A DNA stretch of 40,232 nucleotides from a virus (Duplodnaviria > Caudoviricetes). Below the pieces are notes generated by a model, which did not search any database, was not told where the DNA came from, and saw only the letters and a list, made by a program, of their open reading frames with translations. This document shows, in pieces, positions 2,898-34,767 of this stretch. Positions within the stretch are counted from its first letter, which is position 1; each line of letters opens with the position of its first letter. Where the stretch lies: the IMG/VR virus record IMGVR_UViG_3300049034_000032, positions 1-40,232 of that record; one strand, given 5' to 3'. Both the position numbers and the translations under genes were made by a program.

Positions 2898-3558
2898 GGC
2901 CGGTTCTGAGGCCGTCGAGAACCTCGCCAGCTTCGCCCGCCGCCTCGGCGTCAACCGCAGCACCGTCACCCGTGCCGCCCAGTCCGGCCGCCTGGTGCTG
3001 TCGGCCGACGGCCGCGTCATGGTGCAAGCCAGCCTCGCCCGCTGGCACGCCACGCGAGGCGGCCGGGTTGACGTGGCCGAGCGCCACGCCGACGCCCGTG
3101 GTCACGCTGTTGCAGGCGTTGCGCCGGCCGCAACAGCCCCGGCGAGCGCGCAAATCGGCCCTCAGGGCGCCGATCAGGCTGGCGGCGATGGGCTGGCCCC
3201 ACCCGAAGGCTCGCGTGCCTTCTACGAGGCGCAAAAGCTCGACTGGCAAAACCGCCTGCTGCTGGTGAGCCTCGACCTGCAAAGCGGCGCCCGCGCCCCC
3301 CGCCCGGCGTTGCAGCGCGAGGCCCACGGCCTGGGCGCCACCCTGCGCGCCACCGTCGAGCGCCTCATCGACCAGACCGCACCCCGCCTCGCCGCAGCCC
3401 CCAGCGACGCCGACCGCCGCCGCCTGCTGGCGGGCGAGCTGGGTACCGCCCGCCGCATGGTGCGCCGCGAATTCGCCGCGGCGCTGCGCCGCCTGCGCCC
3501 CGAGCAGCTCGGCACCGCCGGGCTGAAGCTGGACACCACCGAGGAGCCCGCCGCATGA
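2824..3558 (+). CDS. Terminase small subunit (Nu1-like); start codon uncertain
   Basis: HTH-like N-terminal region ASFARRLGVNRSTVTRAAQSGRL, helical C-terminal domain (LRATVERLIDQTAPRLAA), located upstream of TerL. Confidence 0.7.
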   Translation: MSKNKDLVCDGYPSQPPEARHSPEQAGSEAVENLASFARRLGVNRSTVTRAAQSGRLVLSADGRVMVQASLARWHATRGGRVDVAERHADARGHAVAGVAPAATAPASAQIGPQGADQAGGDGLAPPEGSRAFYEAQKLDWQNRLLLVSLDLQSGARAPRPALQREAHGLGATLRATVERLIDQTAPRLAAAPSDADRRRLLAGELGTARRMVRREFAAALRRLRPEQLGTAGLKLDTTEEPAA

Positions 3559-4560: not shown

Positions 4561-4713
4561 ATGGCCTGCCCCAAGTGCTCATGCCTCGTGGTCTACGAGT
4601 TCGATACCGCGGGTGACGACTGCGACCAGGGCGACGACCGCCTGCAGCGCTGCGCCGCCTGCGGACACATCTTCGACCTCGACGACCACGCTGACGAGGA
4701 CGACGACGAATGA
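4561..4713 (+). CDS. Small acidic zinc-ribbon protein (50 aa, not in the ORF track)
   Basis: MACPKCSC...RCAACGHIFDLDDHADEDDDE; two CxxC pairs; stop overlaps the TerL start (ATGA). Confidence 0.7.
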   Translation: MACPKCSCLVVYEFDTAGDDCDQGDDRLQRCAACGHIFDLDDHADEDDDE

Positions 4714-6896
4714 GCGTCGCCACCCTCGCCGACCTCAAAGCCCAACGCGAGCGCCTGCAAGCGCAGCGCGCGGAGCAGACCTGCCGCCAGGCCGAGGCCC
4801 AGGTCGTGCAGCGGCGCGACGTCGTGCGCGCCGGCCTGGCCGTGCGCGAGGCGGCCGACGCCGCGCTGCAGCTGCTGCTCGAGCGCTGGCTGCTCGACGT
4901 GGCCGGCCTCACCGACGAGACCGAGGTGCACCACGCCATGAGCGCCGCCGCGCACGAGGTGCTCGTCGGGCTGGGCCGCGGCATGGCCGCCACCAGCGCC
5001 GCCCAGCCCGCCCTCGGCGAGTCATTTCAACGCGGCGCCACGCCCCGCCAGCTGCTCACCGTCAGCCAGTGGAGCGAGCTGCACCGCTGGCTGCGCAGCG
5101 GCACCAACAGCCCCGGCCCCTGGCGCAACGAGCTAACTCCCTACCTGACCGAAATCATGGACGCGCTCAGCGAGCACTGCAGCGTCCGCCAGGTCACGTT
5201 CATCAAGTCGAGCGGCGTGGGCGGTACCGAGGCTATGTACAACTGGCTCGGCTACGTGATGCACCACCTGGGCAACAAGGACCTGCTGGTGGTGGTGCCA
5301 ACCCTCGAACTGCGCGACCGCAGCTTCAACCCGCGCTTCTCCAAGATGCTCGAGGAAACGCCGGCCCTCAGCGCGCTCACGCCCACCGGCAAGCGCGACC
5401 GCGCCAACCGCGGGGACCTCCTCGAATACGGCGCCCGCGCCCGCGTCATCAAGGCCGGCGCCAACAGCCCCGACAGCCTGCGCTCGGATCACCTGCCCTA
5501 CGTCATCTGCGACGAGGTCGACGCCTTCCCGTGGGACGTCGGCAGCGAGGGCGACCCCATGACGCTGATCGAAAACCGCCAGCGCACCTACAGCCGCGCC
5601 AAGACCTACTGCGTCAGCACGCCCACCCTCGAAGGCCAAAGCCGCATCGACCTGCTCTACAGCCGCAGCGACCAGCGCCGCTACCACGTGCCGTGCCCCG
5701 ACTGCGGTGAGCACCAGCCCCTCGAATTCGGCACCGGCAAGCCCCACGGCCTTCGCTGGCGCACCGCGCCCGAGGAGCCCGGCGAGCCCGTCACCGTGCT
5801 GGCCGCGTGGTACGTCTGCCAGCACTGCGGCGCCGAGATCCAGGAAAAGCACAAGCCCGACATGCTCGCCGCCGGCCGCTGGGTGGCCAAGCGCCCCGGC
5901 CGCAAGCACCACCGCGGCTACCACCTCAACGCCCTGTACGCACCCACCGGCCTCGGCCTCAACTGGCTCAAGATCGCGCAGAAGTGGCTCGACGTGCAGG
6001 GCGACACCGCCGAGCTCAAGGCCTTCGTCAACACCTACCTCGGCGAGGTGTGGAAGGAAGTTGGCGACAGCATCGAGGCCTCCGCGCTGCTCTCCCGCCT
6101 CGAGCACTACGACCTCGCCGCGCTGCCCGTCCACCTCATCACCTTTGGCGGCGACGTCCAGAAGGACCGCATCGAAGTCACCATCGTCGGCTGGGGTGCT
6201 GGCGAGGAAGCCTGGGCCATCGACCACCTCATCCTGCCCGGCGACACCACGCAGCCCGAGGTGTGGCAAGACCTGCACGAAGCCCTTATCGAAGCCGGCG
6301 TGCACATCGGCTGCATCGACGCCCGCTACAACACCAGCGTCGTGCTCGACTTCTGCGAAAAGCGCGCATGGTGCGTGCCCATCATGGGCATGGACGGGGC
6401 AGGGCGCCCGCTGGTGGAAGACGAACTGCGCCGCAAGCAGCGCCTGCGCAAGCGCCGCAAACGCGGCCGCGCGGCCGAGCCCATCGGTGTGGACCAGGCC
6501 AAGACCCTCATCTACGGCCGCCTGCAGCTCACCGAGCCCGGCCCCGGCTACATCCACTTCCCCAACACCCCGGCCTTCGACGACGAGTACTTCGCGCAGC
6601 TGGCCGCCGAGCGCCTCGTCACCAAGGTACGCGGCACGCGGCCGTTCAAAGAGTGGGTGCAGCTGCGCCCCCGCAACGAGGCGCTCGACTGCATGAACTA
6701 CAACCTCGCCGCCGTGCGCCTGGCCCCCATGCTCATCGGCCGTGCCGTCTCCCGCGCCGGCGTGCTTGGCACTGCCGCCGCCGCGGCGCCGCAGGCCGCC
6801 CCCGAGCCCCAAGAGCCCGTCGCAGCGCCGACGGCCGAATCCCCCGCCGCCACGCTCATGCGCATCCAGCGCATGCGCTCGGCCCGCCGCCGCTGA
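4710..6896 (+). CDS. Terminase large subunit (lambda GpA family) with N-terminal helical extension
   Basis: PGPWRNELTPYL, Walker A-like KSSGVGGTE, Walker B YVICDEVD, STPT, CPDCG/CQHCG, nuclease motifs GDVQKDR and RNEALDC. Confidence 0.95.
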   Translation: MSVATLADLKAQRERLQAQRAEQTCRQAEAQVVQRRDVVRAGLAVREAADAALQLLLERWLLDVAGLTDETEVHHAMSAAAHEVLVGLGRGMAATSAAQPALGESFQRGATPRQLLTVSQWSELHRWLRSGTNSPGPWRNELTPYLTEIMDALSEHCSVRQVTFIKSSGVGGTEAMYNWLGYVMHHLGNKDLLVVVPTLELRDRSFNPRFSKMLEETPALSALTPTGKRDRANRGDLLEYGARARVIKAGANSPDSLRSDHLPYVICDEVDAFPWDVGSEGDPMTLIENRQRTYSRAKTYCVSTPTLEGQSRIDLLYSRSDQRRYHVPCPDCGEHQPLEFGTGKPHGLRWRTAPEEPGEPVTVLAAWYVCQHCGAEIQEKHKPDMLAAGRWVAKRPGRKHHRGYHLNALYAPTGLGLNWLKIAQKWLDVQGDTAELKAFVNTYLGEVWKEVGDSIEASALLSRLEHYDLAALPVHLITFGGDVQKDRIEVTIVGWGAGEEAWAIDHLILPGDTTQPEVWQDLHEALIEAGVHIGCIDARYNTSVVLDFCEKRAWCVPIMGMDGAGRPLVEDELRRKQRLRKRRKRGRAAEPIGVDQAKTLIYGRLQLTEPGPGYIHFPNTPAFDDEYFAQLAAERLVTKVRGTRPFKEWVQLRPRNEALDCMNYNLAAVRLAPMLIGRAVSRAGVLGTAAAAAPQAAPEPQEPVAAPTAESPAATLMRIQRMRSARRR

Positions 6897-6904
6897 GGTC
6901 TGCC

Positions 6905-7210
6905 ATGGATGCCCTCGCCATCTTCCTGCGCCTGGTCCGCGAAGCCATTGAGGACAGCGGCGCTCCGCCTGACGCCTTCCATGCCGCGCTCGCCGAGGCC
7001 GAGCAGCGTGCCCGCGCCAGCCTCGGCGGCAGTTTCCACCACATCAGCCGCGTGCCGCCCATCACCACCAAAGCCCGCGTCATCGAGCTGGCGCAGGAGG
7101 GACTGCCCAACGCCGTCATTAGCGAGCGCCTGGGCATCAGCGACCGGTATGTGCGCCGGATCGTGAGCCAGCTGCGGACCGTCAACACCGTCGCTACCAT
7201 CCATACATGA
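6905..7210 (+). CDS. Mor/C-like late transcription activator
   Basis: Helical N-terminus, LGGSFHHIS strand motif, C-terminal HTH GLPNAVISERLGISDRYVRRIV. Confidence 0.7.
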   Translation: MDALAIFLRLVREAIEDSGAPPDAFHAALAEAEQRARASLGGSFHHISRVPPITTKARVIELAQEGLPNAVISERLGISDRYVRRIVSQLRTVNTVATIHT

Positions 7211-7422
7211 ACCACGACGCTGCCACTCAAGCGACCCATCAGCTTCTAGCGAGGCTCCGCCAGCAGCCGGCGGCAAGCGAACTGGCCGAGCTGCGCCATG
7301 CGGCGTTCGAGCAATTCCTGCACGCCAGGATTGCAGAGGCCGTCGGCAGGGCCTTCGACGCCGCCTCCCAATCAATGCTCACCGGCGGCGGCCGCAACTG
7401 CCGGAACAACACGCGCCCCTGA
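7207..7422 (+). CDS. Hypothetical protein (71 aa)
   Basis: ATGA-coupled to the Mor-like gene; 3' end overlaps the putative late promoter. Confidence 0.5.
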   Translation: MNHDAATQATHQLLARLRQQPAASELAELRHAAFEQFLHARIAEAVGRAFDAASQSMLTGGGRNCRNNTRP

Positions 7423-7452
7423 GTTCCGCCCCGCCCGGCATCGTGCCGGGCC
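7402..7452 (+). promoter_or_regulatory. Putative activator-dependent late promoter 1
   Basis: CGGAACAAC-N11-AGTTCCGCCCC-N20-ATG; identical spacing to the copy at 11088. Confidence 0.75.
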
Positions 7453-8010
7453 ATGAGCGACGACAGCCTGCCCAGCACCCACACAGCCGGCGACAGCGCC
7501 GCCTGGCGCCTCGACGCGGGCGACTGCCCGCCGGCTGACGGCTGGGCCGCCGAGCTGGTGCTCGTCGGCGCCACGCGCATAGAGATCGTCTGCACCGTCG
7601 ACGGCACCCAGTTCGCCGCCAACCAAACCAGCGCCAACACCGCCACTTGGCCACCCGGGCCCTACGCGCTCACCCTCGTCTGCACCAAGGGCACAGACCG
7701 CGTGTCCCGCGGCGCCGGCGCGCTGCGCGTGCTGGCCGACCCCGCGGCCGTCGGCACCACTGCCCGCAGCTCCATGACCGCGGCCGAGGCCCACCTCGCC
7801 GACCTCGAGGCCGCCTACCGCGCCCACATGGCCAGCGGCATGGCCGTCGTCGGCGAGTACCGCGTCGGCACGCGCATGAAGCGCTTCAAGGATGTGGCCG
7901 ACCTGCTCAAGGCGATCAACCTCGCCCGCGCCGACGTCGAACGCGAGAAGGCCGCCGCCGGCCTGGCCGACGGCCAGAGCGCGCGCAAGTGGTTCCAGGT
8001 CCGCATGTAA
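7453..8010 (+). CDS. Head-tail adaptor/head completion protein (gpW-like C-terminus)
   Basis: C-terminal EYRVGTRMKRFKDVADLLKAINLARADV pattern; position between TerL and portal. Confidence 0.7.
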   Translation: MSDDSLPSTHTAGDSAAWRLDAGDCPPADGWAAELVLVGATRIEIVCTVDGTQFAANQTSANTATWPPGPYALTLVCTKGTDRVSRGAGALRVLADPAAVGTTARSSMTAAEAHLADLEAAYRAHMASGMAVVGEYRVGTRMKRFKDVADLLKAINLARADVEREKAAAGLADGQSARKWFQVRM

Positions 8011-8029
8011 CCCTTCAGGAGAACACCCC

Positions 8030-9682
8030 ATGCTCATCACCATGCTGGCCGACCGCTTCGACGCGGGCGGTGTGCTGCGCGCCAAGGGCACGCAGGTCGA
8101 CGTCGCCACCGAGCTGGCGCTGCGCTGGATCGGCGACGGCGTCGCCTCCGCCGTCGGCACGTCGCGCGAGACGGCCCAGGGCATCCGCAAGGACGTGCCG
8201 GTGCTGCAGGACCGCATCAGCGGCACACAGATCGCGGGGGACTCCCCGGTGTCAGGGGCTGGGACCGGAAACACCTTCGTCGGCATGGGCCACAGCCGCA
8301 TCGCCCAGGCGTTCAACGGCAGCACCTTCCCCAACCTGAGCTTCGGCTATCCGACCATCATCACGCAGATGCTGGGCCAGCGGATCACCTGGCTGGCCTC
8401 CTATGCGGTGGTTGGAAATACCGTCGCTCAGGTCATCTCCACCCAGCTCCCACAGCTTCAGGCGCTCTCGACGAAGCCGGACTATGTGCTGATGGAGATC
8501 GGCTACAACGATTTCAGCGTCGGCGCGACGGCGGCGGCAGTGCAAGCTCAGTACGCCCAGCTGCTGACGGCAATCAACGGGCTCGGCATCAAGGTCGTTG
8601 CTGTCACCGACTCCCCGGGCACGACCCTGACGGCCTCTCAGCAGCTCCAGCAGCAGACGTTCAATGCCTGGCTGGTGGGTCAGGGTCGCGCAAACAAGAG
8701 CCTGATCGTCGTGGATGGCTACAGCTGCGTCGTCGGCACGGCCGCAGACGGTTCGGCCGGCGCCATGCACTCGACCATGAGGCAGTCGGACGGCATCCAC
8801 CATGCGCCGTCCGGCGCGATGGCTATTGCGCGCGAGCTGTTCACGGTGCTGGACCCGATCATCCCCAAGCGCAGCATCTTTGGAGCCGGCGCCAGCGCGG
8901 CGGCGCAGCTGGTCTACAACCCCAACGCCGACGGCGACAACGCCAGCGGCGCCAACGGCTGGACGGCCGGCGCGGGTGTTACCGGGAATGGCCCCAGCTA
9001 CTGGAACGCGGTCTGCGCGAATGCGACGGCGACCACATCTTCTGTCGCTCGCTCGGCAAGCTCCTACGCCCCACAGAACAAGACTGGCGCGCTTCTCAAT
9101 GTGGCGGCCAGCATCACGGCAAACGACGGCACCGTTACCGTCGTGCCGGCGACCACCACGAACATCAGGTTTATCCCGTTCGCCAACGGCGCGACGGTGC
9201 AGCTGGGCTACCGCGTCATGCCGACCGTGGACAACGGCGCCGGCTATGTGGTGACAACGGCCGGCACGCTCGGCGCAGCGGACGACTCGGCCACCTGGTC
9301 AACTACGCCGGGGGCCGTCGTGCAATCTGGCGCTGGCACCGCCCGCCTGACGGTCGTGGAGAAGATCGTCCCCGGTGACACGGTGGTATTTGTCGCAGAG
9401 GTTTTCGGCGCAGTCACAGGCGGCTCGGGCGGCGTCTACGCCCAGCTGGCCGCCTTCACCTCGGCGTTCGGCAACCTCGGCTCGACCTACGGTGGGCGCC
9501 TCAACATCGGCACCTACGGCCCGAACGCCGGCTATATGCCGCCGTCGATGGTGCTGCAAACGGCCCCGTTCACGCTGCCGACCAACACCGGGATCGTGCA
9601 GCCGCAGGTCGTCATCAGCGGGACCAACGGAGCGGCGATCACGGCACAGATCGGCGCTTGCATGCTGCGCAAGGTCAGCTGA
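8030..9682 (+). CDS. SGNH/GDSL hydrolase with a putative virion-anchoring N-terminus and carbohydrate-binding-like C-terminal domains
   Basis: AGGAG RBS; SGNH blocks GMGHS, VVGNT, IGYND, DGIHH; beta-rich Gly/Thr/Ala C-terminus including a PTVDNGAGYVVTTAGT...W module. Confidence 0.85.
   Translation: MLITMLADRFDAGGVLRAKGTQVDVATELALRWIGDGVASAVGTSRETAQGIRKDVPVLQDRISGTQIAGDSPVSGAGTGNTFVGMGHSRIAQAFNGSTFPNLSFGYPTIITQMLGQRITWLASYAVVGNTVAQVISTQLPQLQALSTKPDYVLMEIGYNDFSVGATAAAVQAQYAQLLTAINGLGIKVVAVTDSPGTTLTASQQLQQQTFNAWLVGQGRANKSLIVVDGYSCVVGTAADGSAGAMHSTMRQSDGIHHAPSGAMAIARELFTVLDPIIPKRSIFGAGASAAAQLVYNPNADGDNASGANGWTAGAGVTGNGPSYWNAVCANATATTSSVARSASSYAPQNKTGALLNVAASITANDGTVTVVPATTTNIRFIPFANGATVQLGYRVMPTVDNGAGYVVTTAGTLGAADDSATWSTTPGAVVQSGAGTARLTVVEKIVPGDTVVFVAEVFGAVTGGSGGVYAQLAAFTSAFGNLGSTYGGRLNIGTYGPNAGYMPPSMVLQTAPFTLPTNTGIVQPQVVISGTNGAAITAQIGACMLRKVS
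8238..8264 (+). other. Putative recombination core site L: GGGACTCCCC-[GGTGTCA]-GGGGCTGGGA
   Basis: CAGGGGCTGGGA (8253-8264) matches the inverted 9684-9695 at 11/12; lies at the anchor/SGNH domain boundary. Confidence 0.55.
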
Positions 9683-9683
9683 T

Positions 9684-9710
9684 TCCAAGCCCCTGCCGGT
9701 GCTGATAGGA
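9684..9710 (-). other. Putative recombination core site R: TCCAAGCCCC-[TGCCGGT]-GCTGATAGGA
   Basis: Begins 1 nt after the SGNH stop codon; imperfect dyad (6/10) around a 7-bp spacer; inverted relative to site L. Confidence 0.55.
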
Positions 9711-9716
9711 GCCCGC

Positions 9717-9902
9717 CTACTTGGCTGGCTTTTTCTTTTCCGGCACTGGCTCCCAGGCGTCTAGATAGGCCTCAAAGGCGGCTTTGCCGGCCAGGTCGAT
9801 CTTGGCCCAGTGGCGCGGCAGTAGCCGCTGCGAGCGGTGCACGCGGACCTCGGATACCGGCTTCGGAGGCCGGCCGCCTTTGTTCTTGGTGGCTGCAGTC
9901 AT
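9717..9902 (-). CDS. Small basic DNA-binding protein (AT-hook-like GGRPP, possibly ribbon-helix-helix)
   Basis: MTAATKNKGGRPPKPVSEVRVHRSQRLLPRHWAKID; divergent from the recombinase. Confidence 0.7.
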   Translation of the reverse strand: MTAATKNKGGRPPKPVSEVRVHRSQRLLPRHWAKIDLAGKAAFEAYLDAWEPVPEKKKPAK

Positions 9903-9905
9903 CAA

Positions 9906-9962
9906 GTTATTAGACCACGCAAACAGGGGGTTCGCTGTCCTTGGTTATCGTGGTCTCATAAC
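9906..9962. promoter_or_regulatory. Symmetric divergent promoter/operator region
   Basis: 14-bp inverted repeat GTTATTAGACCACG (9906-9919) / CGTGGTCTCATAAC (9949-9962), 1 mismatch; each arm ends 3 nt before an outward-facing ATG. Confidence 0.7.
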
Positions 9963-9985
9963 CGCATGACTACACAGTTAGCACC

Positions 9986-11086
9986 ATGACAGGCGGACAC
10001 CTTGCGGATGTGCTGGAGTCCATCGCCCATGCTATTCGAGCGCTGCCAGCAGGCGGCCAAGTGGCGCAGGTCTTTCCATCCATGCAGCCAGCGCCCGCGC
10101 CGCCGCCACCACCGCCATCTCCGTCGCAGCCAACGCCGCCGGTTGCGGCGGTCCCGATCGCGGTGCCCGCTGCCGCGGCGGTGCCTCAGGAACAGCAGAC
10201 CGACGGCGAATCGATGGCCGCATGGCTCGCGACCTACCGGACGATCCTCGGCGACCGCGGCTATGACCCGCAGACGATCCGCAACCGCTCCGCATCGGTG
10301 AAGTTCATCGAGTCCAGCTTGGGCGCGAGGCCGCTGCGTGGCATCAAGCCGCACGAGATCGCGTCGCTGCTGAAGACCTGCAGCCCGCACAAGGCGGTGA
10401 GGGTGCTCGGCGAACTGCGAGACGTCTACGTCGAGGCCATCGCCAACGGGGAGGCCGAAACAAGCCCTGCCGCCCACGTCAAGCCGCCCAGGGCACCAGG
10501 CCTGCGCAAACGGCTGACCCTGGAGACGTGGAACGACATGCTGCTGCTGGCCAGCGCAGGCACCGTCCCGTGGGTGCCGGCGATGCTGCTTCTCGCGCTG
10601 CACACCGGCCAGCGTCGCGCGGACCTTGCCAAGATGCGGTTCAGCGACGTGGTGGATGGGCACCTGCGCATCGAGCAGCAAAAGAAGGCCCGCAAGAAGA
10701 TCGGCGCGCGCGTGGCCATCCCGCTCAGCCTGCGCCTGGAGGCGACCGGGATGACACTTGGCGAAGTGATCGAGCTCTGCCGCGACATCGGCGCGCCGGG
10801 CGACACACTGCTGCGCCAGGCCAACGGCAGACCTATCGAGATGTCATCGCTCAGCGCGCGGTTCTGCGAACTGATCGTGCAGGTCGTGCCGCCTGATGCC
10901 TACGCTGAATACGAGCGCCCCAGCCTGCACGAGGCCCGGTCGCTCGCCGCGCGCACTTACATCGACGAGGGGATGGCTCCGGCCGTCGTGCAAACGCTGC
11001 TCGGGCACAAGAACGCGGAGATGACCAAGGTCTATCTTGACGACCGAGGACTTACGGCCGCCGAATGGAAGCACGTCTCCGCCTGA
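9986..11086 (+). CDS. Tyrosine recombinase, lambda-Int-like, lacking an arm-binding domain
   Basis: Catalytic set TGQRRAD, QQKK, LHEAR, LLGH, KVY; lambda-Int-like C-terminal tail YLDDRG...W; Pro-rich N-terminal linker. Confidence 0.93.
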   Translation: MTGGHLADVLESIAHAIRALPAGGQVAQVFPSMQPAPAPPPPPPSPSQPTPPVAAVPIAVPAAAAVPQEQQTDGESMAAWLATYRTILGDRGYDPQTIRNRSASVKFIESSLGARPLRGIKPHEIASLLKTCSPHKAVRVLGELRDVYVEAIANGEAETSPAAHVKPPRAPGLRKRLTLETWNDMLLLASAGTVPWVPAMLLLALHTGQRRADLAKMRFSDVVDGHLRIEQQKKARKKIGARVAIPLSLRLEATGMTLGEVIELCRDIGAPGDTLLRQANGRPIEMSSLSARFCELIVQVVPPDAYAEYERPSLHEARSLAARTYIDEGMAPAVVQTLLGHKNAEMTKVYLDDRGLTAAEWKHVSA

Positions 11087-11087
11087 G

Positions 11088-11138
11088 CGGAACAACTCGG
11101 CCCCCGCAGTTCCGCCCCCCTCAGCACGATGCCTCCCC
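11088..11138 (+). promoter_or_regulatory. Putative activator-dependent late promoter 2
   Basis: CGGAACAAC-N11-AGTTCCGCCCC-N20-ATG directly upstream of the portal gene. Confidence 0.75.
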
Positions 11139-12711: not shown

Positions 12712-14676
12712 ATGCCTGCTGTCATTGAGCGCAACAGCCTGCCTGACAACGTCCGCAAGGCCCTCGCTGAGCCGCAGAAGCGCGCCATGGCCTACGAGCG
12801 CGGCGCCATCGACAAGGAAGCCCGCACCGTCGAACTCTGCTTCGCCAGTGACGCGCCTTATGAGCGCTGGTGGGGCGTGGAGATCCTCGATTGCACCGGC
12901 TCCGCCGTGAACCTCGAGCGCCTCAACAACCGCCACCCGCTGCTACTCGACCACAACACCCGCGATCAGATCGGCGTGGTGGAGAAGGCGTGGGTCGACA
13001 GCGACCGCAAGTGCCGCGCGATGGTGAAGTTCAGCCGCTCGGCGCGCGCCGAGGAAATCTTCCAGGACGTCCTCGACGGCATCCGCGAGCTCGTCTCGGT
13101 CGGCTACTCCATCGACGACATGGTGCTCGAAAGCCGCACCGACGACGACGCCACCTACCGCGTCACCGCCTGGACGCCCTACGAGGTGTCCATCGTTTCC
13201 ATCCCGGCCGACACCACCGTTGGGGTGGGCCGCTCCCTGGCCGCCGAGGCCGCAACCGCTCAACCCCAGGAGACCCGCATGAGCGACACCACCACCACCG
13301 CCCCGGCGCCCGCACCCGCGCCGGACATCCGCGTCATCGCCAGCCAGGCCGCCACGCAGGAACGCGAGCGCGCCAACGCCATCCGCGCCATGGGCCACGC
13401 CCACAGCCTGGCCGACGAGGCCGCCGCCGCCGTCGACAGCGGCGCCACCGTCGATGCCTTCCGCGAGCTGGTGCTCAAGAAGCTCGAGGAGCGCGGCAAG
13501 CTCAAGCCCGCCGTCAGCCCCGAACTGGGCCTCAGTGAGCGCGAACAGCAGCGCTTCAGCATCACGCGGCTGATGTACGCGCTGCTGGAGCCGAATGACA
13601 GTGACGCCCAGAAGCGCGCCGCCTTCGAAATCGAGTGCTCGGTGCAAGCCCGCAAGCTGCGCCCGCTGGACGAGAAGGGCGAGCACTACAGCCACCGCGC
13701 CTCCGGCTACACCGTGCCGGTGGACGTGCTGAAGGGCAGCATCGCCCGCGAAGCCAAGGTGGCCGAGGCCGTGCGCGCCATGCTGGCGCAGCGTGACCTG
13801 ACCGTCGGTACGCCGACCGCTGGCGGCAACCTGGTGGCCACCGACCTGCTGGCCGGCAGCTTTATCGACCTGCTGCGCAATCGCATGGTGCTGGCCCAGC
13901 TCGGCGCCACCGTGCTGGACGGCCTCACCGGCAACATCGCCATCCCGAGCCAGACGGCCGGCGCCAGCACCTACTGGGTGGCCGAAGGCGTGAACGTGAC
14001 CGAGAGCCAGGCCGCATTCGGTCAAGTCACGCTGACGCCGAAGACCGTGGGCATGTTCACGGACTTCTCGCGCAAGACGCTGTTGCAATCCACGCCCGCC
14101 ATCGAGGCGCTGGTGCGCGCCGACCTGGCCAACGGCATCGCGTGCGAGATCGACCGCGTTGGCCTGGCCGGCAGCGGTAGCGGCGCCGAGCCGCGCGGCG
14201 TGATCAACACCGCCGGCATCGGCGCGGTGGCGGGCGGCACCAACGGCGCCGCGCCGACCTATGCGCACATGGTGGCGCTGGAAGAGGCCGTCGCCATCGC
14301 CAACGCGGATGTCGGCAGCCTGCGCTTCTGCACCAACGCCAAGATGCGCGCCCAGCTGCGCCTCACCCAGGTCTTCGCGTCGACCAACGGTGCGCCCGTG
14401 TTCGACAACGACAAGATCATGGGCTACGAGACGGGCATCACCAACAGCATGCCCAGCACGCTGACCAAGGGCTCCGCAGCCGGGGTCTGCTCGGGCATCG
14501 CTTTCGGCAACTGGAGCGACCTGCTGATCGGCTTCTGGTCCGGCCTGGACCTGATCCTCGACCCCTATGCCCTGGCCACGGCCGGCGGCCGCCGCATCGT
14601 CGCGCTGCAGGACTGCGACACCGCCGCCCGCCGGGCCGCGAGCTTCGCGGCCATGTTGGACGCCCTGCGCACCTGA
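12712..14676 (+). CDS. Prohead protease / major capsid protein fusion (HK97 fold)
   Basis: Protease motifs LLLDHN, VSVGY, PYEVSIVSIPAD; capsid motifs GGNLVATD, YWVAEG, FGNWSDL. Confidence 0.93.
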   Translation: MPAVIERNSLPDNVRKALAEPQKRAMAYERGAIDKEARTVELCFASDAPYERWWGVEILDCTGSAVNLERLNNRHPLLLDHNTRDQIGVVEKAWVDSDRKCRAMVKFSRSARAEEIFQDVLDGIRELVSVGYSIDDMVLESRTDDDATYRVTAWTPYEVSIVSIPADTTVGVGRSLAAEAATAQPQETRMSDTTTTAPAPAPAPDIRVIASQAATQERERANAIRAMGHAHSLADEAAAAVDSGATVDAFRELVLKKLEERGKLKPAVSPELGLSEREQQRFSITRLMYALLEPNDSDAQKRAAFEIECSVQARKLRPLDEKGEHYSHRASGYTVPVDVLKGSIAREAKVAEAVRAMLAQRDLTVGTPTAGGNLVATDLLAGSFIDLLRNRMVLAQLGATVLDGLTGNIAIPSQTAGASTYWVAEGVNVTESQAAFGQVTLTPKTVGMFTDFSRKTLLQSTPAIEALVRADLANGIACEIDRVGLAGSGSGAEPRGVINTAGIGAVAGGTNGAAPTYAHMVALEEAVAIANADVGSLRFCTNAKMRAQLRLTQVFASTNGAPVFDNDKIMGYETGITNSMPSTLTKGSAAGVCSGIAFGNWSDLLIGFWSGLDLILDPYALATAGGRRIVALQDCDTAARRAASFAAMLDALRT

Positions 14677-27902: not shown

Positions 27903-28153
27903 CTCGGGGGTAACTCAAGGGGTAACTAGTGGCTGGAATACTGGCTGACGCCCTATAAGTTGATTCCCCCCGGCTCCACCATGTACCCCTCCGTGAACGT
28001 TCGCACACGTTCACGGAGCCGCCTGAAAATGCGGGTTTCATAGGGGGAACGAGTTCGCACCAGTGCGACTCATTCCGCTACCATCCGCCCCGCTCGGGGG
28101 TAACTTTGGGGGTAACTTTGCCGCCCGCCCGCGGGCGTGTCTGGAGTTACCCC
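27903..28153. other. attP: tmRNA-3'-end core flanked by integrase arm-type sites
   Basis: Core GATTCCCCCCGGCTCCACCA (27962-27981); GGGGTAACT at 27907, 27919, 28097, 28109 and inverted at 28145; 12-bp IR at 27989-28018. Confidence 0.88.
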
Positions 28154-28154
28154 T

Positions 28155-29417
28155 GTGGCCACGAACAAGCTCAGCGATGCCGCCATTCGGCGGGCCGTCG
28201 CCCCTCAAGGCAAGACGCTGAAACTCTCAGACGGCGATGGTTTGCGTCTGGAGGTGCGTGATACCGGGGCGAAGTATTGGCGGCTCAAATACTATTTCGC
28301 TGGCGCTGAGAAGTTGCTGTCGATGGGCGTGTATCCCGAGGTGGGCCTCGGCGAAGCGCGGCGACGGCGTGACGAGGCCCGGCAGAAGCTGGCGGAAGGC
28401 GTGGATCCCAGCGTCGCGCGACAGGCGGACAAGGCCGCCCAGATGGCTGCGGCCCTGGTGGCGCGTGAGGTTGCGGCCGGCGGGCCGACGCCGGGCTCGT
28501 TCCGCTGGCTGGCGGAAAAGTGGTTGGACGAGGTGCATGCGCACAAGGTGTCCGCCGCGCAGGTGGTCAAAATCCGCCGCTGGCTGGAGCTCTACGCCTA
28601 CCCGGACCTCGGCGAGCGGCCGGCCGACGACATCGAGCCGCCCGAGTTGCTGACCACGCTGCAGCCGGTGGTGGCCCAGGGCACCATCGAGACGGCGCAC
28701 CGGGTGAAAAACGCATGCGGGCAGGTCTTCCGCTACGGGGTGGCGTCAGGCGTCTGCAAGCGCAACCCGGCGGCCGACCTGGCCGACGCCTTGCCGACGA
28801 CCGTCGTGACGCATCACGCGTCCATCGTGACGCCGACGGAGGTGGGCGCGCTGCTGCGCGACATGGATGCCTATGTTGGTCACCCGGTGACGTGTGCGGC
28901 GCTGCAGCTCTCGGCTCTGCTGATCCTGCGGCCCGGCGAGTTGCGGCACCTGGAGTGGGCCTGGGTGGACCTGGCCGGCGCGATGGTGTCGGTGCCGCCA
29001 GTGCGCATGAAGGGCTCGCTGCAGCAGAAGATCTCCGGCGGCGCGCACCTGGTGCCGCTGGCCAGCCAGGCCGTCCAGGTGCTGGAGAAGCTGCAGGCCA
29101 TCACTGGCCGCGGCCGCTACGTGTTCCCAGCCGTGACGTCATCGACGCGCTGCATGAGCGAGAACACCGTGCGCAGCGCGCTGCGCCGCCTGGGCTATGA
29201 CAACGAAGAGATGAGTGCGCACGGCTTCCGCGCGATGGCGCGGACGATGGGTGCCGAGCGGCTGGATGTCGGCGGTGATGTCATCGACGCCCAGCTGGCC
29301 CACGCCGTGCGGGACGCCAACGGCCGGGCCTACAACCGGACCAAGTTCCTGGATCAGCGACGCGCCTTCATGCAGGCCTGGGCCGACTACCTCGACGGAC
29401 TGCGGGCGGCCAAGTAG
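28155..29417 (+). CDS. int: Phage integrase, P4-like tyrosine recombinase with arm-binding domain
   Basis: N-terminal LSDGDGLRL...GVYPEVGL; catalytic LRPGE, AHGFR, QLAH, AYN; GGAG RBS before GTG 28155. Confidence 0.95.
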   Translation: MATNKLSDAAIRRAVAPQGKTLKLSDGDGLRLEVRDTGAKYWRLKYYFAGAEKLLSMGVYPEVGLGEARRRRDEARQKLAEGVDPSVARQADKAAQMAAALVAREVAAGGPTPGSFRWLAEKWLDEVHAHKVSAAQVVKIRRWLELYAYPDLGERPADDIEPPELLTTLQPVVAQGTIETAHRVKNACGQVFRYGVASGVCKRNPAADLADALPTTVVTHHASIVTPTEVGALLRDMDAYVGHPVTCAALQLSALLILRPGELRHLEWAWVDLAGAMVSVPPVRMKGSLQQKISGGAHLVPLASQAVQVLEKLQAITGRGRYVFPAVTSSTRCMSENTVRSALRRLGYDNEEMSAHGFRAMARTMGAERLDVGGDVIDAQLAHAVRDANGRAYNRTKFLDQRRAFMQAWADYLDGLRAAK

Positions 29418-31460: not shown

Positions 31461-31985
31461 TCAAGCGGGGGAAGGGATTTCGGCGGTGGCCGGGGCGGTG
31501 GCGGCGTCGATCAGCGCAATCGCCCTGTCGTAATCGCGCAGCGCATCGGCCACGTCAGGGGGAATCCACACGTCCTCGGCGACCCAGACCAGGCCGTGCG
31601 CAACTGCGTCTTCGACTTGCGACCCGTGCACCTGGTGGCAATCCACGAAGCCCTGGCGGTCGGTGGCCAGGATGTCGCGCGCGTTCTTGCAGGCGGCACG
31701 CAGCGCGTCGCGCTCGGCGGTGAGCTTCTCGGCGGCCCGCAAGACGTGGCCGTTGGCGTCGGCGTAGCTGGAGGGCAGGCAGTTCAGCGCGCGGGCCACG
31801 GACCACACGGTGGACCGCCACTGGTCGGCGGTGCGGCCGAAGGTCCAGAACTCGCCCAGCCAATGACCCTCGGGCGCCGGGGATTCATTCTGGGCGCCCA
31901 GGGCGATTGCGCCGGATATCGTGACCGCCACGCGCTCACGGATGCCGGACGTGTCGGCGTCCATGCTGTAGGGTTTGTTTTTCAT
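31461..31985 (-). CDS. Hypothetical protein
   Basis: Tiles the leftward operon. Confidence 0.65.
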   Translation of the reverse strand: MKNKPYSMDADTSGIRERVAVTISGAIALGAQNESPAPEGHWLGEFWTFGRTADQWRSTVWSVARALNCLPSSYADANGHVLRAAEKLTAERDALRAACKNARDILATDRQGFVDCHQVHGSQVEDAVAHGLVWVAEDVWIPPDVADALRDYDRAIALIDAATAPATAEIPSPA

Positions 31986-32009
31986 GATGAGTTCCGGGGG
32001 CTTGGAAGG

Positions 32010-32495
32010 TCAGGGCTTCGGCGCGTGAATCGTGATATCGCGCTGCTTGCCGCCATCCACGGTGATCGCCTTGTCCACGTCGTGGCCAGCGCGGCGAACC
32101 ATCTCGACCGTGAGGCCAACGAAGGCGCCGGTTATCACGATCAACACATCGGCAGCAGGTGCCTCGTCCAGCGCGTCGGAGATGGCCTGGCCAAGCCTAT
32201 CGATCGGCGCAGCGCCAGAGGCGTAGACCCGTTCGATGCTCACGCCGCCGATCTCGAACTCGATCTCGTACAGACTGCCGCGCTCGTCTTCGACGTGCTC
32301 GTCATAGTCGGTCTTGAGGCGGTCCAGCGTCACCGTGCCGTCGTAGTCGGTCGCGTCTTCAGCGCCCAGCCACTCGCGGACCATGAAGCGGCGCACGCCC
32401 TCCCAGCCGCTCACCAGCTCGGCGGCCGGCAGGTCTGTTTCTCCCCAGGCGCGGCACAGGAAGGTTTCAGGGGCTTTCGGGTCAGTTGTGGGCAT
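32010..32495 (-). CDS. Hypothetical protein
   Basis: GGAG RBS; tiles the leftward operon. Confidence 0.65.
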   Translation of the reverse strand: MPTTDPKAPETFLCRAWGETDLPAAELVSGWEGVRRFMVREWLGAEDATDYDGTVTLDRLKTDYDEHVEDERGSLYEIEFEIGGVSIERVYASGAAPIDRLGQAISDALDEAPAADVLIVITGAFVGLTVEMVRRAGHDVDKAITVDGGKQRDITIHAPKP

Positions 32496-33939: not shown

Positions 33940-34767
33940 TCAGGCGGCGTTGAAGGTGATGCGGTACTTGCCGCCCTTATCGCGGTGCTCCTGGTCGCAG
34001 TAGCGGCGGAAGGCGCCTTCATGGTCCTCACCGGGCAGCATGTCGATGCTGGTGCCAATCAGGCCGCCCTTCCATGAGCCCTTCTGCGTGCCGACCTCGG
34101 CGCTGAAGTGGATGTCCAGGCTGCGGCGCACCATCGGGCGACGGAACAGCGATAGCCACTTGAACGAGCCTTCGCCGAAGTGCCATTCCCGTTCCTCGAT
34201 GCGCGTCGTGGCCTGGATGACGGCGCCGTCGTAGTCGGTGATGCTGAAGGTCACGGTCGGGCAAGCCGAACGCTGGCGGTCCATCTCTTCCCATTCGCCT
34301 TCCTTCCAGCGCCCGGCCCGCTGCGGCTCGGTCCAGAAGTGCTCGCCGGCCGCGTCATAGAAGCTGTGCCGCACATGGCGCCACTGAGTCCACGGCAGGA
34401 ACTTGCTCCAGCTCTTGGTGGTTGTGCTGTCGTGGGTCTGTGGCCCGAGGAACACCTGCAGGAAGCCGTCGCTGACGCTGAAGCCGTACTCGCGCGGGTG
34501 CGTCTCGTAGTACCAGTTCCGCCCCATGCGCGCCACTGTGGCGGCGTCCCAGGTCTGCGCGATGTGCTTGATGCGGAAGGGCTGCACCAGCGTGGGCAGA
34601 CTGAGCCGCAGCACGCGGCCGAAAGCCCAGGCCGTCAGGCTGTTGCGCGGGCGGGAATCGTCGCCATCGCCCCCGGTGCAAAAGGTCAGGCGCAGCGGGC
34701 GATAGCTGTCCGTCTTGCCCCAGGTGAGCGGGCCAAAGCGGCGGTCGTTGTCGGTTAGTCGAGACAT
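33940..34767 (-). CDS. Hypothetical Trp-rich protein (275 aa)
   Basis: AGGA RBS; long ORF with phage-like codon usage. Confidence 0.75.
   Translation of the reverse strand: MSRLTDNDRRFGPLTWGKTDSYRPLRLTFCTGGDGDDSRPRNSLTAWAFGRVLRLSLPTLVQPFRIKHIAQTWDAATVARMGRNWYYETHPREYGFSVSDGFLQVFLGPQTHDSTTTKSWSKFLPWTQWRHVRHSFYDAAGEHFWTEPQRAGRWKEGEWEEMDRQRSACPTVTFSITDYDGAVIQATTRIEEREWHFGEGSFKWLSLFRRPMVRRSLDIHFSAEVGTQKGSWKGGLIGTSIDMLPGEDHEGAFRRYCDQEHRDKGGKYRITFNAA

Follow-up and report, generated by a model that had tools for sequence, protein, structure and literature searches.

Introduction

Engineered recombinase-mediated cassette exchange (RMCE), like Gateway att1/att2, places a cassette between heterospecific sites and uses lambda-Int chemistry with a 7-bp overlap. 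The DNA studied here, the 40,232-bp virus record IMGVR_UViG_3300049034_000032 (the whole stretch analysed, hereafter the window), belongs to a temperate siphophage and carries what appears to be a natural counterpart. It comprises a gene at 8030-9682 that joins an N-terminal anchor to a payload across one site (L), a second site (R) just behind the gene, and a tyrosine recombinase gene at 9986-11086. We propose that this recombinase, a lambda-Int-type enzyme without arm-binding domain, probably exchanges cassettes between two phage genomes through crossovers at sites of the same spacer. Phages would thereby have a directed means to trade enzymes that are predicted to attack host surfaces. Compared with engineered RMCE and Gateway, the system is natural, its enzyme is armless and its addresses are many. 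Natural cassette exchange with heterospecific sites was the core of the original prediction for this locus, and the relatives described below support it; it would not be the first case, since double-crossover replacement of modules has been proposed for the dif modules of Acinetobacter (PMC13141974).

According to that report, replacement of a single module on Rep_3/OrfX plasmids is explained by a cointegrate formed at one pdif pair whose two sites share a spacer and resolved at the other pair (PMC13141974). As described there, dif modules lie between inverted sites, as the present cassettes do; they recombine at identical or near-identical spacers and use an enzyme supplied in trans (PMC13141974), both of which we propose for the phage cassettes too. 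Features of their own, in the same description, are host XerC and XerD, a 6-bp spacer, alternating C and D modules and a cargo of whole genes, on the plasmids of one genus. Here, in contrast, we find a phage-encoded armless lambda-Int relative, a 7-bp spacer, few addresses in fixed order and sites that mostly face the same way, one of them within a reading frame. XerC/XerD arms around a 6-bp spacer, by which pdif sites are recognized, are absent, and the replicons are phage genomes, not Rep_3/OrfX plasmids on which C and D modules alternate. The phage system works like dif modules without being one: enzyme, arm, spacer length, polarity and replicon all differ.

Integrons, which also occur in phages, are described as arrays of accessory genes that each end at a site, with a tyrosine recombinase nearby and with some arrays lacking the enzyme (PMC9892861), and the present loci show the same features. 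Unlike integrons, they have short sites at fixed addresses, a conserved order and, apparently, replacement in place of stacking. The enzyme is lambda-Int-like and, judged by its best solved and cultured relatives, the integrases of lambda, HK022 and 434, not of the IntI family. Cassettes stacked in free order at one attI, with attC sites, were not seen: the order is consistent, repeats are depleted and an Rfam search of the window gave no match.

Rci shufflons and phage tail-fibre invertases join a constant N-terminus to a variable C-terminus through an in-frame site with one strong arm. In contrast to these, the present locus has no alleles in cis, its spacers differ, no inversion was seen and the library is spread over other phages; the several C-termini between inverted sites of the same core that mark a shufflon are missing. 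With the integrases of lambda and HK022 the recombinase shares core-binding and catalytic domains at ~32% identity, but it has no arm-binding domain and hence is not heterobivalent, and the phage encodes a separate integrase.

Module swaps with sharp boundaries in phages, and the movement of receptor-attacking domains between unrelated phages, are an old open question, and conserved 'boundary' sequences were long ago proposed for phage module swapping. Here the boundaries are base-precise and a candidate enzyme can be named. No description of these sites was found in the published literature (mostly open papers, main texts). A dedicated phage enzyme, a shared address code and in-frame domain exchange appear to be undescribed; the reaction logic has natural precedent.

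Anatomy of the sites

Site L (8238-8264, plus strand) consists of the outer arm GGGACTCCCC (8238-8247), the spacer GGTGTCA (8248-8254) and the inner arm GGGGCTGGGA (8255-8264); its part CAGGGGCTGGGA, at 8253-8264, lies in frame in the 550-amino-acid (aa) gene and is read P73-V-S-G-A-G. On the top strand, site R (9684-9710, minus strand) is made up of the inner arm TCCAAGCCCC (9684-9693), the spacer TGCCGGT (9694-9700; ACCGGCA on the other strand) and the weak outer arm GCTGATAGGA (9701-9710), and its motif TCCAAGCCCCTG (9684-9695) starts a single base beyond the stop codon. These positions and both spacers had been read correctly in the original prediction. Its view of the sites as dyads also holds over 101 cassette-in-context units, which were pooled from L- and R-based searches and selected on spacer lists: the outer L arm has the consensus [AG]GGG[CA]T[TG]G[GA]A, much like that of the inner arm, and at R the corresponding arm is a weaker copy. 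The arm, GGGG[CA]TGGGA, is GC-rich, both arms are of one type and the spacer is 7 bp long. L and R have in common the two spacer bases adjoining the inner arm. Read on the top strand, both spacers vary on their right side (GGTG-TCA/GAT/AAT and TGCCG-GT/AC), so that, speculatively, partial spacer matching may suffice.

An 11/12 match between inverted motifs is not rare by itself, as had been cautioned. Within 8030-9760 there are 12 inverted 12-mer pairs with at most one mismatch, or 10 once overlaps are merged, and a window-wide position weight matrix scan for sites at a low threshold gave 11 matches against 7-16 in shuffles, which is no excess. A scan with the 14-mer TGATTCCCATCCCC returned mostly unrelated low-GC sequence, with ACCGGCA in 10/120.

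Mosaic junctions in relatives

Comparison with relatives, the first set of which was thirty loci with recombinase homologues, revealed the sharp breakpoints that had been predicted at both motifs. L002 and L003 are 99.86% identical upstream to L and 99.99% identical from R on, with unlike DNA only between, and their first mismatches fall inside the inner arms. L009 and L010 are ~83% similar to the window, with similarity ending exactly at 8264 and resuming from 9723; L004 matches the window up to 8169 and again from 9680, and its anchor, which is shorter, has an L site of its own. The 1,376-bp cassette of L002 recurs at 99.9-100% identity in L284, L288 and L289, so that four loci present it between three left and four right flanks. 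Its identity starts 0-4 nt before the L spacer and stops 0-1 nt after the R spacer; the flanks are unrelated and upstream not alignable, and L284 and L288, which have the anchor in common, diverge just after R. Two further pairs, L040/L061 and L267/L282, are alike through the last base of the right spacer and different beyond.

The window's own cassette was met in a second phage, on a ~46.5-kb contig of the public runs X5, X6 and X9, with homology over 8248-9702 and other flanks; the anchor there matches P0271, in which a payload 98% identical to that of the window sits on an unrelated 33-aa anchor. The two copies of the cassette differ at 14 positions, and those listed are confined to its initial 100 nt. 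In run X3 a loose end at 8243, considered as the window payload on the L002 anchor, was dropped, the contig matching just 18 nt of site L.

Over the 101-cassette set, in which pairs are not independent, internal alignment ends lie at L or R in both partners in 27 of 32 cases at ≥90% identity and 39 of 67 at ≥80%, where ~0.6 and ~1.2 are expected. Junction partners carry the same spacer in 38 of 40 pairs, and in 21 of 21 for R-type sites, on this comparative count. The sharing on the flank side can be as small as the 7-bp spacer. L256 and L285 have in common an anchor and the minor spacer GGTGGAT, and their payloads differ. Exchange almost certainly takes place at these sites.

It is hardly probable that the motifs are kept for some other reason, as a protein linker or a regulatory site, and supply microhomology for homologous or illegitimate recombination. 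L does also encode a flexible linker, and the divergent first 100 nt of the window cassette suggest homologous recombination inside payloads too. Yet partners may share just the spacer on the flank side, R-type spacers are fixed though non-coding, and in loci retrieved via R the codons GTG TCA are conserved even at their silent positions, while the dyad symmetry and the clade-specific arms call for a site-specific enzyme.

Anchors and payloads

An in-frame anchor-payload fusion of at least 50 codons is present in 100 of the 101 cassettes, which fall into 47 anchor clusters (median 67 aa) and 58 payload clusters (median 436 aa); the reading frame through L is fixed, which fuses payload to anchor. 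The exact L 17-mer was found in 63 IMG/VR stretches, representing 51 distinct contexts. L-anchored frames that close inside their locus run for at least 200 codons in 39 of 45 cases, compared with 13.8% from random starts, and in 29 of the 45 the arm follows directly after the stop codon, with spacer ACCGGCA in 19, TCGCGGA in 6, GTCGGCA in 2 and others in 2. The R 17-mer occurs in ~160 stretches, of which 120 were fetched and 80 had long flanks; upstream of R, with no spacer filter applied, GGTGTCA dominates, with GGTGGAT as a minor class beside rarer variants.

The window anchor (residues 1-73; 8030-8248, plus strand) is a lineage-specific N-terminal domain that is also fused to 12 other C-terminal parts (P0278-P0289), in 9 of them at V-S-G-[AD] and in 3 through an altered motif at that position. 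Unrelated payloads on one anchor were found as anticipated. The claim that payloads are swapped onto a constant anchor stands as to the swapping; the anchor is not constant, given 47 clusters among 101 cassettes and cassettes that cross unrelated phages. A shift in codon usage around site L, noticed earlier by eye, agrees with GC contents at third codon positions of 0.97 for the anchor and 0.86 for the payload. Pfam searches of 27 anchors gave nothing beyond sub-threshold matches in 4, and for the window anchor there is a DUF7210-like atlas lead (score 0.90).

Among 56 payload representatives, Pfam assigned 14 to SGNH/GDSL, 2 to polysaccharide deacetylase and one each to beta-helix, GH28, GDPD, LamG and BNR families, several of these matches lying below curated cut-offs; 35 had no match. 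Cassettes co-reside in bacteria: in 2 of 5 genomes tested a second cassette-bearing region lies on another contig, and in G047 both payloads have 493 aa, are alike at the start and sit on unrelated anchors.

Two variant settings were also seen. In L018 the cassette (6959-9809) is on the opposite strand, downstream of the recombinase. In L252 and L317 the gene upstream of the anchor gene matches phrog_95, labelled integrase, with no head gene there.

Further addresses and arrays

The L and R spacers are each conserved, as had been predicted, but they are not the only two addresses, since TCGCGGA, GTCGGCA, ACCTCTG, ACCTATG, GGCAATG and others occur as well. The same arm is found after stop codons in arrays, both behind the payload and among early genes, and the spacers GGCAATG, GGGTGCA, CCTGTGA, AGGCGCG, TGTACCG, ACCCTCA, ACCTCTG, ACCTATG and CACCTCT recur across phages. 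Array cargo includes DNA methyltransferases, an acyl carrier protein, a helix-turn-helix protein and proteins without assigned function; genes behind internal sites possess their own start codons. In 33 arrays the order of recurring spacers is consistent except for one pair, successive sites point the same way, and same-spacer site pairs number 1 of 68, against a shuffled mean of 5.6 (P 0.008). With sites placed just past stop codons, whole accessory genes could be swapped in the same manner. For the early genes this reading is drawn from layout, since no near-identical phage pair differing only in an early slot was found among the loci.

In the window, a further early-region site lies at 31990-32006 (plus strand; spacer AGTTCCG, arm GGGGCTTGGA, arm score 14.1), 3 nt past the stop of the minus-strand gene 32010-32495, and a one-base-shifted version of it is present in L013/L106. 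A weak and uncertain candidate at 31461-31477 (plus strand; spacer TCAAGCG, arm score 8.3) overlaps the end of gene 31461-31985, and its spacer recurs in L029.

Elsewhere, the acyl carrier protein gene L107 8178-8429 is the cargo of an early slot, and L257 holds the sole direct repeat of one spacer (ACCTCTG, at 3338 and 3633) in an array, which is predicted to be deletable. Near-perfect solo dyads with the L spacer were noticed at L574 2470-2510 (G046), at L573 10120-10160 (G050) and, with one base changed, in L569 (G049). They lie between the stop of a transposase-like gene and the apparent right end of an element, with no payload behind; from its motifs we take this element to be of the IS66 family. 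With such an address aboard, an insertion sequence could ride on phages or capture them.

The recombinase and a sister clade

The recombinase (9986-11086, plus strand), the likely cognate enzyme, has lambda-Int core-binding and catalytic domains behind a Pro/Ala-rich N-terminus. It was thought to be a second, intact tyrosine recombinase, and the residues R210, K233, H315, R318, H341 and Y350, the lambda-Int-like R-K-H-R-H-Y set, are indeed present and invariant in 24 homologues. Aligned with lambda Int, the profile of its family covers residues 61-348 (E 2.7e-47), and no PF13356 arm-binding domain was found in 9986-11086. Recombinases with only core-binding and catalytic domains are described as acting autonomously on core-type sites (PMC2817482). 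Named relatives come from Pelomonas, Roseateles and Paucibacter, and no homologue above 35.2% identity was found in cultured phages. A separate integrase lies elsewhere, as had been supposed, at 28137-29417 (plus strand; PF13356, PF22022, PF00589); it is an ordinary prophage enzyme with an arm-binding domain and stands outside the system.

Arm type follows the enzyme clade. Of the homologues at ≥49.7% identity, 36 of 41 have A-type sites, those of the window, nearby; at 38-49.6% this is so for 1 of 32 and below 38% for 0 of 23. The mid-range band is largely a second armless clade (B) of ~300 aa, with the arm GGGGATTAGA, the right spacer GTGCAGA and variants, and an in-frame left spacer TCACCGG; B-type sites lie near 17 of 32 mid-range recombinases, 4 of 41 close ones (under a looser match rule) and 0 of 23 distant ones. 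In this sister system (L429-L462, L509-L559) the right site, often immediately before the recombinase start, gave 51 matches; an in-frame TCACCGG is present in 30 of 50 distinct loci, and three pairs have their breakpoints at the sites. The B arm motif was spotted by eye, k-mer counting having missed it. A quick tree parts the A and B clades with support 99 (13 rows left out), but because its A label was partly set by identity, the assignment rests on the site-linkage counts. This recombinase clade very probably performs the exchange.

The sites might instead be real and acted on by another enzyme, from the host or another phage, the neighbouring recombinase being cargo or a binder only. Such a division would suit the lack of the recombinase in most site-bearing phages, and dif modules are described as using host XerC/XerD (PMC13141974). 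It sits badly with arms that differ from one recombinase clade to the other and are lacking next to distant lambda-like integrases, and with the invariance of the catalytic residues. A 7-bp dyad, moreover, fits lambda-Int relatives, and we regard the involvement of another enzyme as very unlikely.

Side by side with the two clades stand other armless lambda-Int relatives (L435, L439, L440, L445, L469 and L472) with neither arm type nearby, possibly a third system; four of them have in common an upstream CACCGTCCCGGCGG-like stretch.

Proposed route of exchange

In the scheme that we favour, two genomes would meet through co-infection or as co-resident prophages, the latter in keeping with the cassette co-residence noted above. 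The recombinase of either phage, or of a third, would bind the GGGG[CA]TGGGA arms and, by analogy with lambda-Int biology, join L with L into a cointegrate. A second crossover at the other common address (R with R, M with M) would then resolve the cointegrate and swap the segment between; the structure of the products is what the junctions display, and the order of events is our inference. The resident anchor would in this way receive a new enzyme domain in frame, one predicted to be displayed on the virion. Differing spacers within one genome may protect it by blocking inversion and deletion, of which no case was observed.

Among the alternatives, inversion in cis from L to R, by a switch or a shufflon, is barely conceivable. 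The strong arms are inverted, and an anchor with a variable C-terminus is the shufflon layout. Against this, the spacers differ, no locus has the same spacer twice in inverted orientation, no inverted cassette was met and no strand-change joint lies at the sites in 8 runs of public contigs. The original prediction had likewise excluded an alternative allele in cis, and the window holds one L site. The 8 runs were examined for joints, those with short sides being set aside as likely from other organisms. Inverted, empty or circular cassette forms, which it had been suggested should be sought, were found neither in the loci, nor in the contigs of these runs, nor among proteins of 40-130 aa, nor by an empty-site pattern; each null is weak alone. 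Contigs drop rare forms, the runs X1 and X2 may be where the window comes from, and the soil runs may be one campaign. The single match to the empty-site pattern proved to be an ordinary fusion.

The same searches bear on excision and insertion of the integron or IntDOT kind, in which the cassette leaves as a circle by mismatch-tolerant LxR recombination and enters a site of another phage. This would account for an exchanged unit that includes both spacers, for the agreement of L and R in the two spacer bases beside the inner arm, and for the spacer mismatches and the one order reversal described below. Spacer identity had been taken as a need of the enzyme family; it holds for most tyrosine recombinases and not for every one, IntDOT being described as needing one base of overlap identity only (PMC2817482). 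However, no R-to-L joint and no joint across the cassette appeared in the 8 contig runs, nor any stacked form, and all GGTGTCA frames shorter than 50 codons ran off the contig end. No stand-alone anchor protein (40-130 aa) was found, and the empty-site match dissolved as stated. Fixed order, depleted repeats and own start codons behind internal sites also tell against this route, which we judge unlikely. Spacer-matched replacement is quite probably what occurs.

Several observations weigh against spacer-matched replacement by this enzyme. Junctions at the outer edges of the spacers would also be expected if a cassette carried both spacers with it. Both spacer-mismatch exceptions among the 40 junction pairs involve L253, whose spacer is GGTGAAT, and relatives with its anchor or its payload carry GGTGTCA. 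Spacer frequencies in the 101-cassette set are biased by selection on spacer lists. The identical tract of the window cassette begins at 8348, not at L, because the listed differences sit in the first 100 nt. L289, which lies outside the array count, runs counter to 4 arrays in having ACCGGCA ahead of TCGCGGA, and its slot of 23 bp is empty. Some spacers resemble one-base shifts of others. The last site before homologous regulator-recombinase units varies (ACCGGCA, TCGCGGA, AGCTTTC, ACCTATG, CGGTCTG), so that strict matching alone is no explanation. A close recombinase homologue is present in just 6 of 41 site-bearing records and 4 of 18 near-complete ones, and 6 of 20 near-complete site-bearing records have no PF00589 match; because most site-bearing phages are without the recombinase, it would have to act in trans. 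The distance between enzyme and L is ~20 kb in G001 and G002.

There may well be a community-wide address system, in which armless lambda-type recombinase clades, each with an arm of its own, serve all phages that retain the matching 7-bp addresses, including those that do not bear the enzyme. If so, one common library would supply sipho- and podo-type phages with virion enzyme domains and early accessory genes, in frame and in fixed slots, and the address system would be a dedicated site-specific engine of phage mosaicism. It would also be a route of diversification apart from diversity-generating retroelements, invertases and shufflons, and the phage community would hold its library. The two recombinase clades, with natural and distinct sets of 7-bp spacers, are candidate tools for multi-site cassette exchange.

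The fusion protein and the virion

The 477-aa payload (8249-9682, plus strand) had been described as an SGNH enzyme, and Pfam agrees (PF13472, E 3.8e-11): GHS, GYND and DGIH are present in the sequence, G85, N87, D181 and H184 are invariant, and the block I Ser, GxND and DxxH of the fold can all be recognized in this predicted enzyme. Block I of SGNH proteins usually has Asp where the payload has His. An AlphaFold2 model from a 12-row alignment, with a predicted local distance difference test (pLDDT) of 74.8, shows the SGNH domain followed by a beta-rich C-terminal part; a single-sequence model with pLDDT 32 was discarded. Among the Foldseek neighbours of the model are GDSL esterases and phage esterases, a protein of Shigella phage B2, and also tail fibres, tail spikes and a minor capsid protein.

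Display of the anchor-payload fusion on the virion, with the anchor as its predicted docking part, seems probable. The gene upstream of the anchor gene (n=78) has a head, packaging, connector or tail function in 45 cases and another function in 4, belongs to an unknown family in 5 and is unmatched in 24. In Klebsiella prophages, SGNH esterases are described as widespread receptor-binding enzymes with activity shown by experiment (PMC13123978). Co-folding of anchor residues 1-50 with the capsid domain supports display weakly, with a score of 0.52 (best control 0.00); the runs agree in at least 0% of contacts, and the partner pLDDT is at least 61. Among reference pairs the mark was attained by 116 of 157 solved and 2 of 215 mismatched ones, but at 0.60 or below by only 18 of the solved pairs and by both mismatches. 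A protein acting off the virion, released at lysis or modifying the host surface from inside, is a rather unlikely alternative and independent of the DNA mechanism. It would suit anchors of just 16-20 aa and the 35 of 56 payload representatives without a Pfam match, as well as the weakness of the co-fold, whose three runs disagree. The position of the gene in the head operon, the tail fibres, tail spikes and minor capsid protein among its structural neighbours, and the frequency of such esterases as prophage receptor-binding enzymes (PMC13123978) speak against a place off the virion.

Genomic context

The cassette and recombinase sit between the head-tail joining gene (7453-8010), which follows the terminase (4710-6896), and the portal gene, which runs to 12707; a protease-capsid gene (12712-14676) and then tail and lysis genes come after. 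Between R and the recombinase, and divergent from the latter, lies a 58-aa gene (9717-9893, minus strand) with homologues in 16 distinct loci. Its weak atlas look-alikes (CcdA, MobC and NikA-like, scores 0.84-0.86) provide a lead to a possible regulator. A scan for promoters and terminators gave no signal above shuffles. A palindrome-like motif, CGGAACAAC..AGTTCCG, occurs at 7402-7440, before the head-tail joining gene, and at 11088-11126, in the gap between recombinase and portal; it is conserved in L004 and L010 and is a possible late-gene control site. In the early region, 33940-34767 (minus strand) encodes Acb3, an inhibitor of the cyclic oligonucleotide-based anti-phage signalling system CBASS (PF25187, E 7.5e-72).

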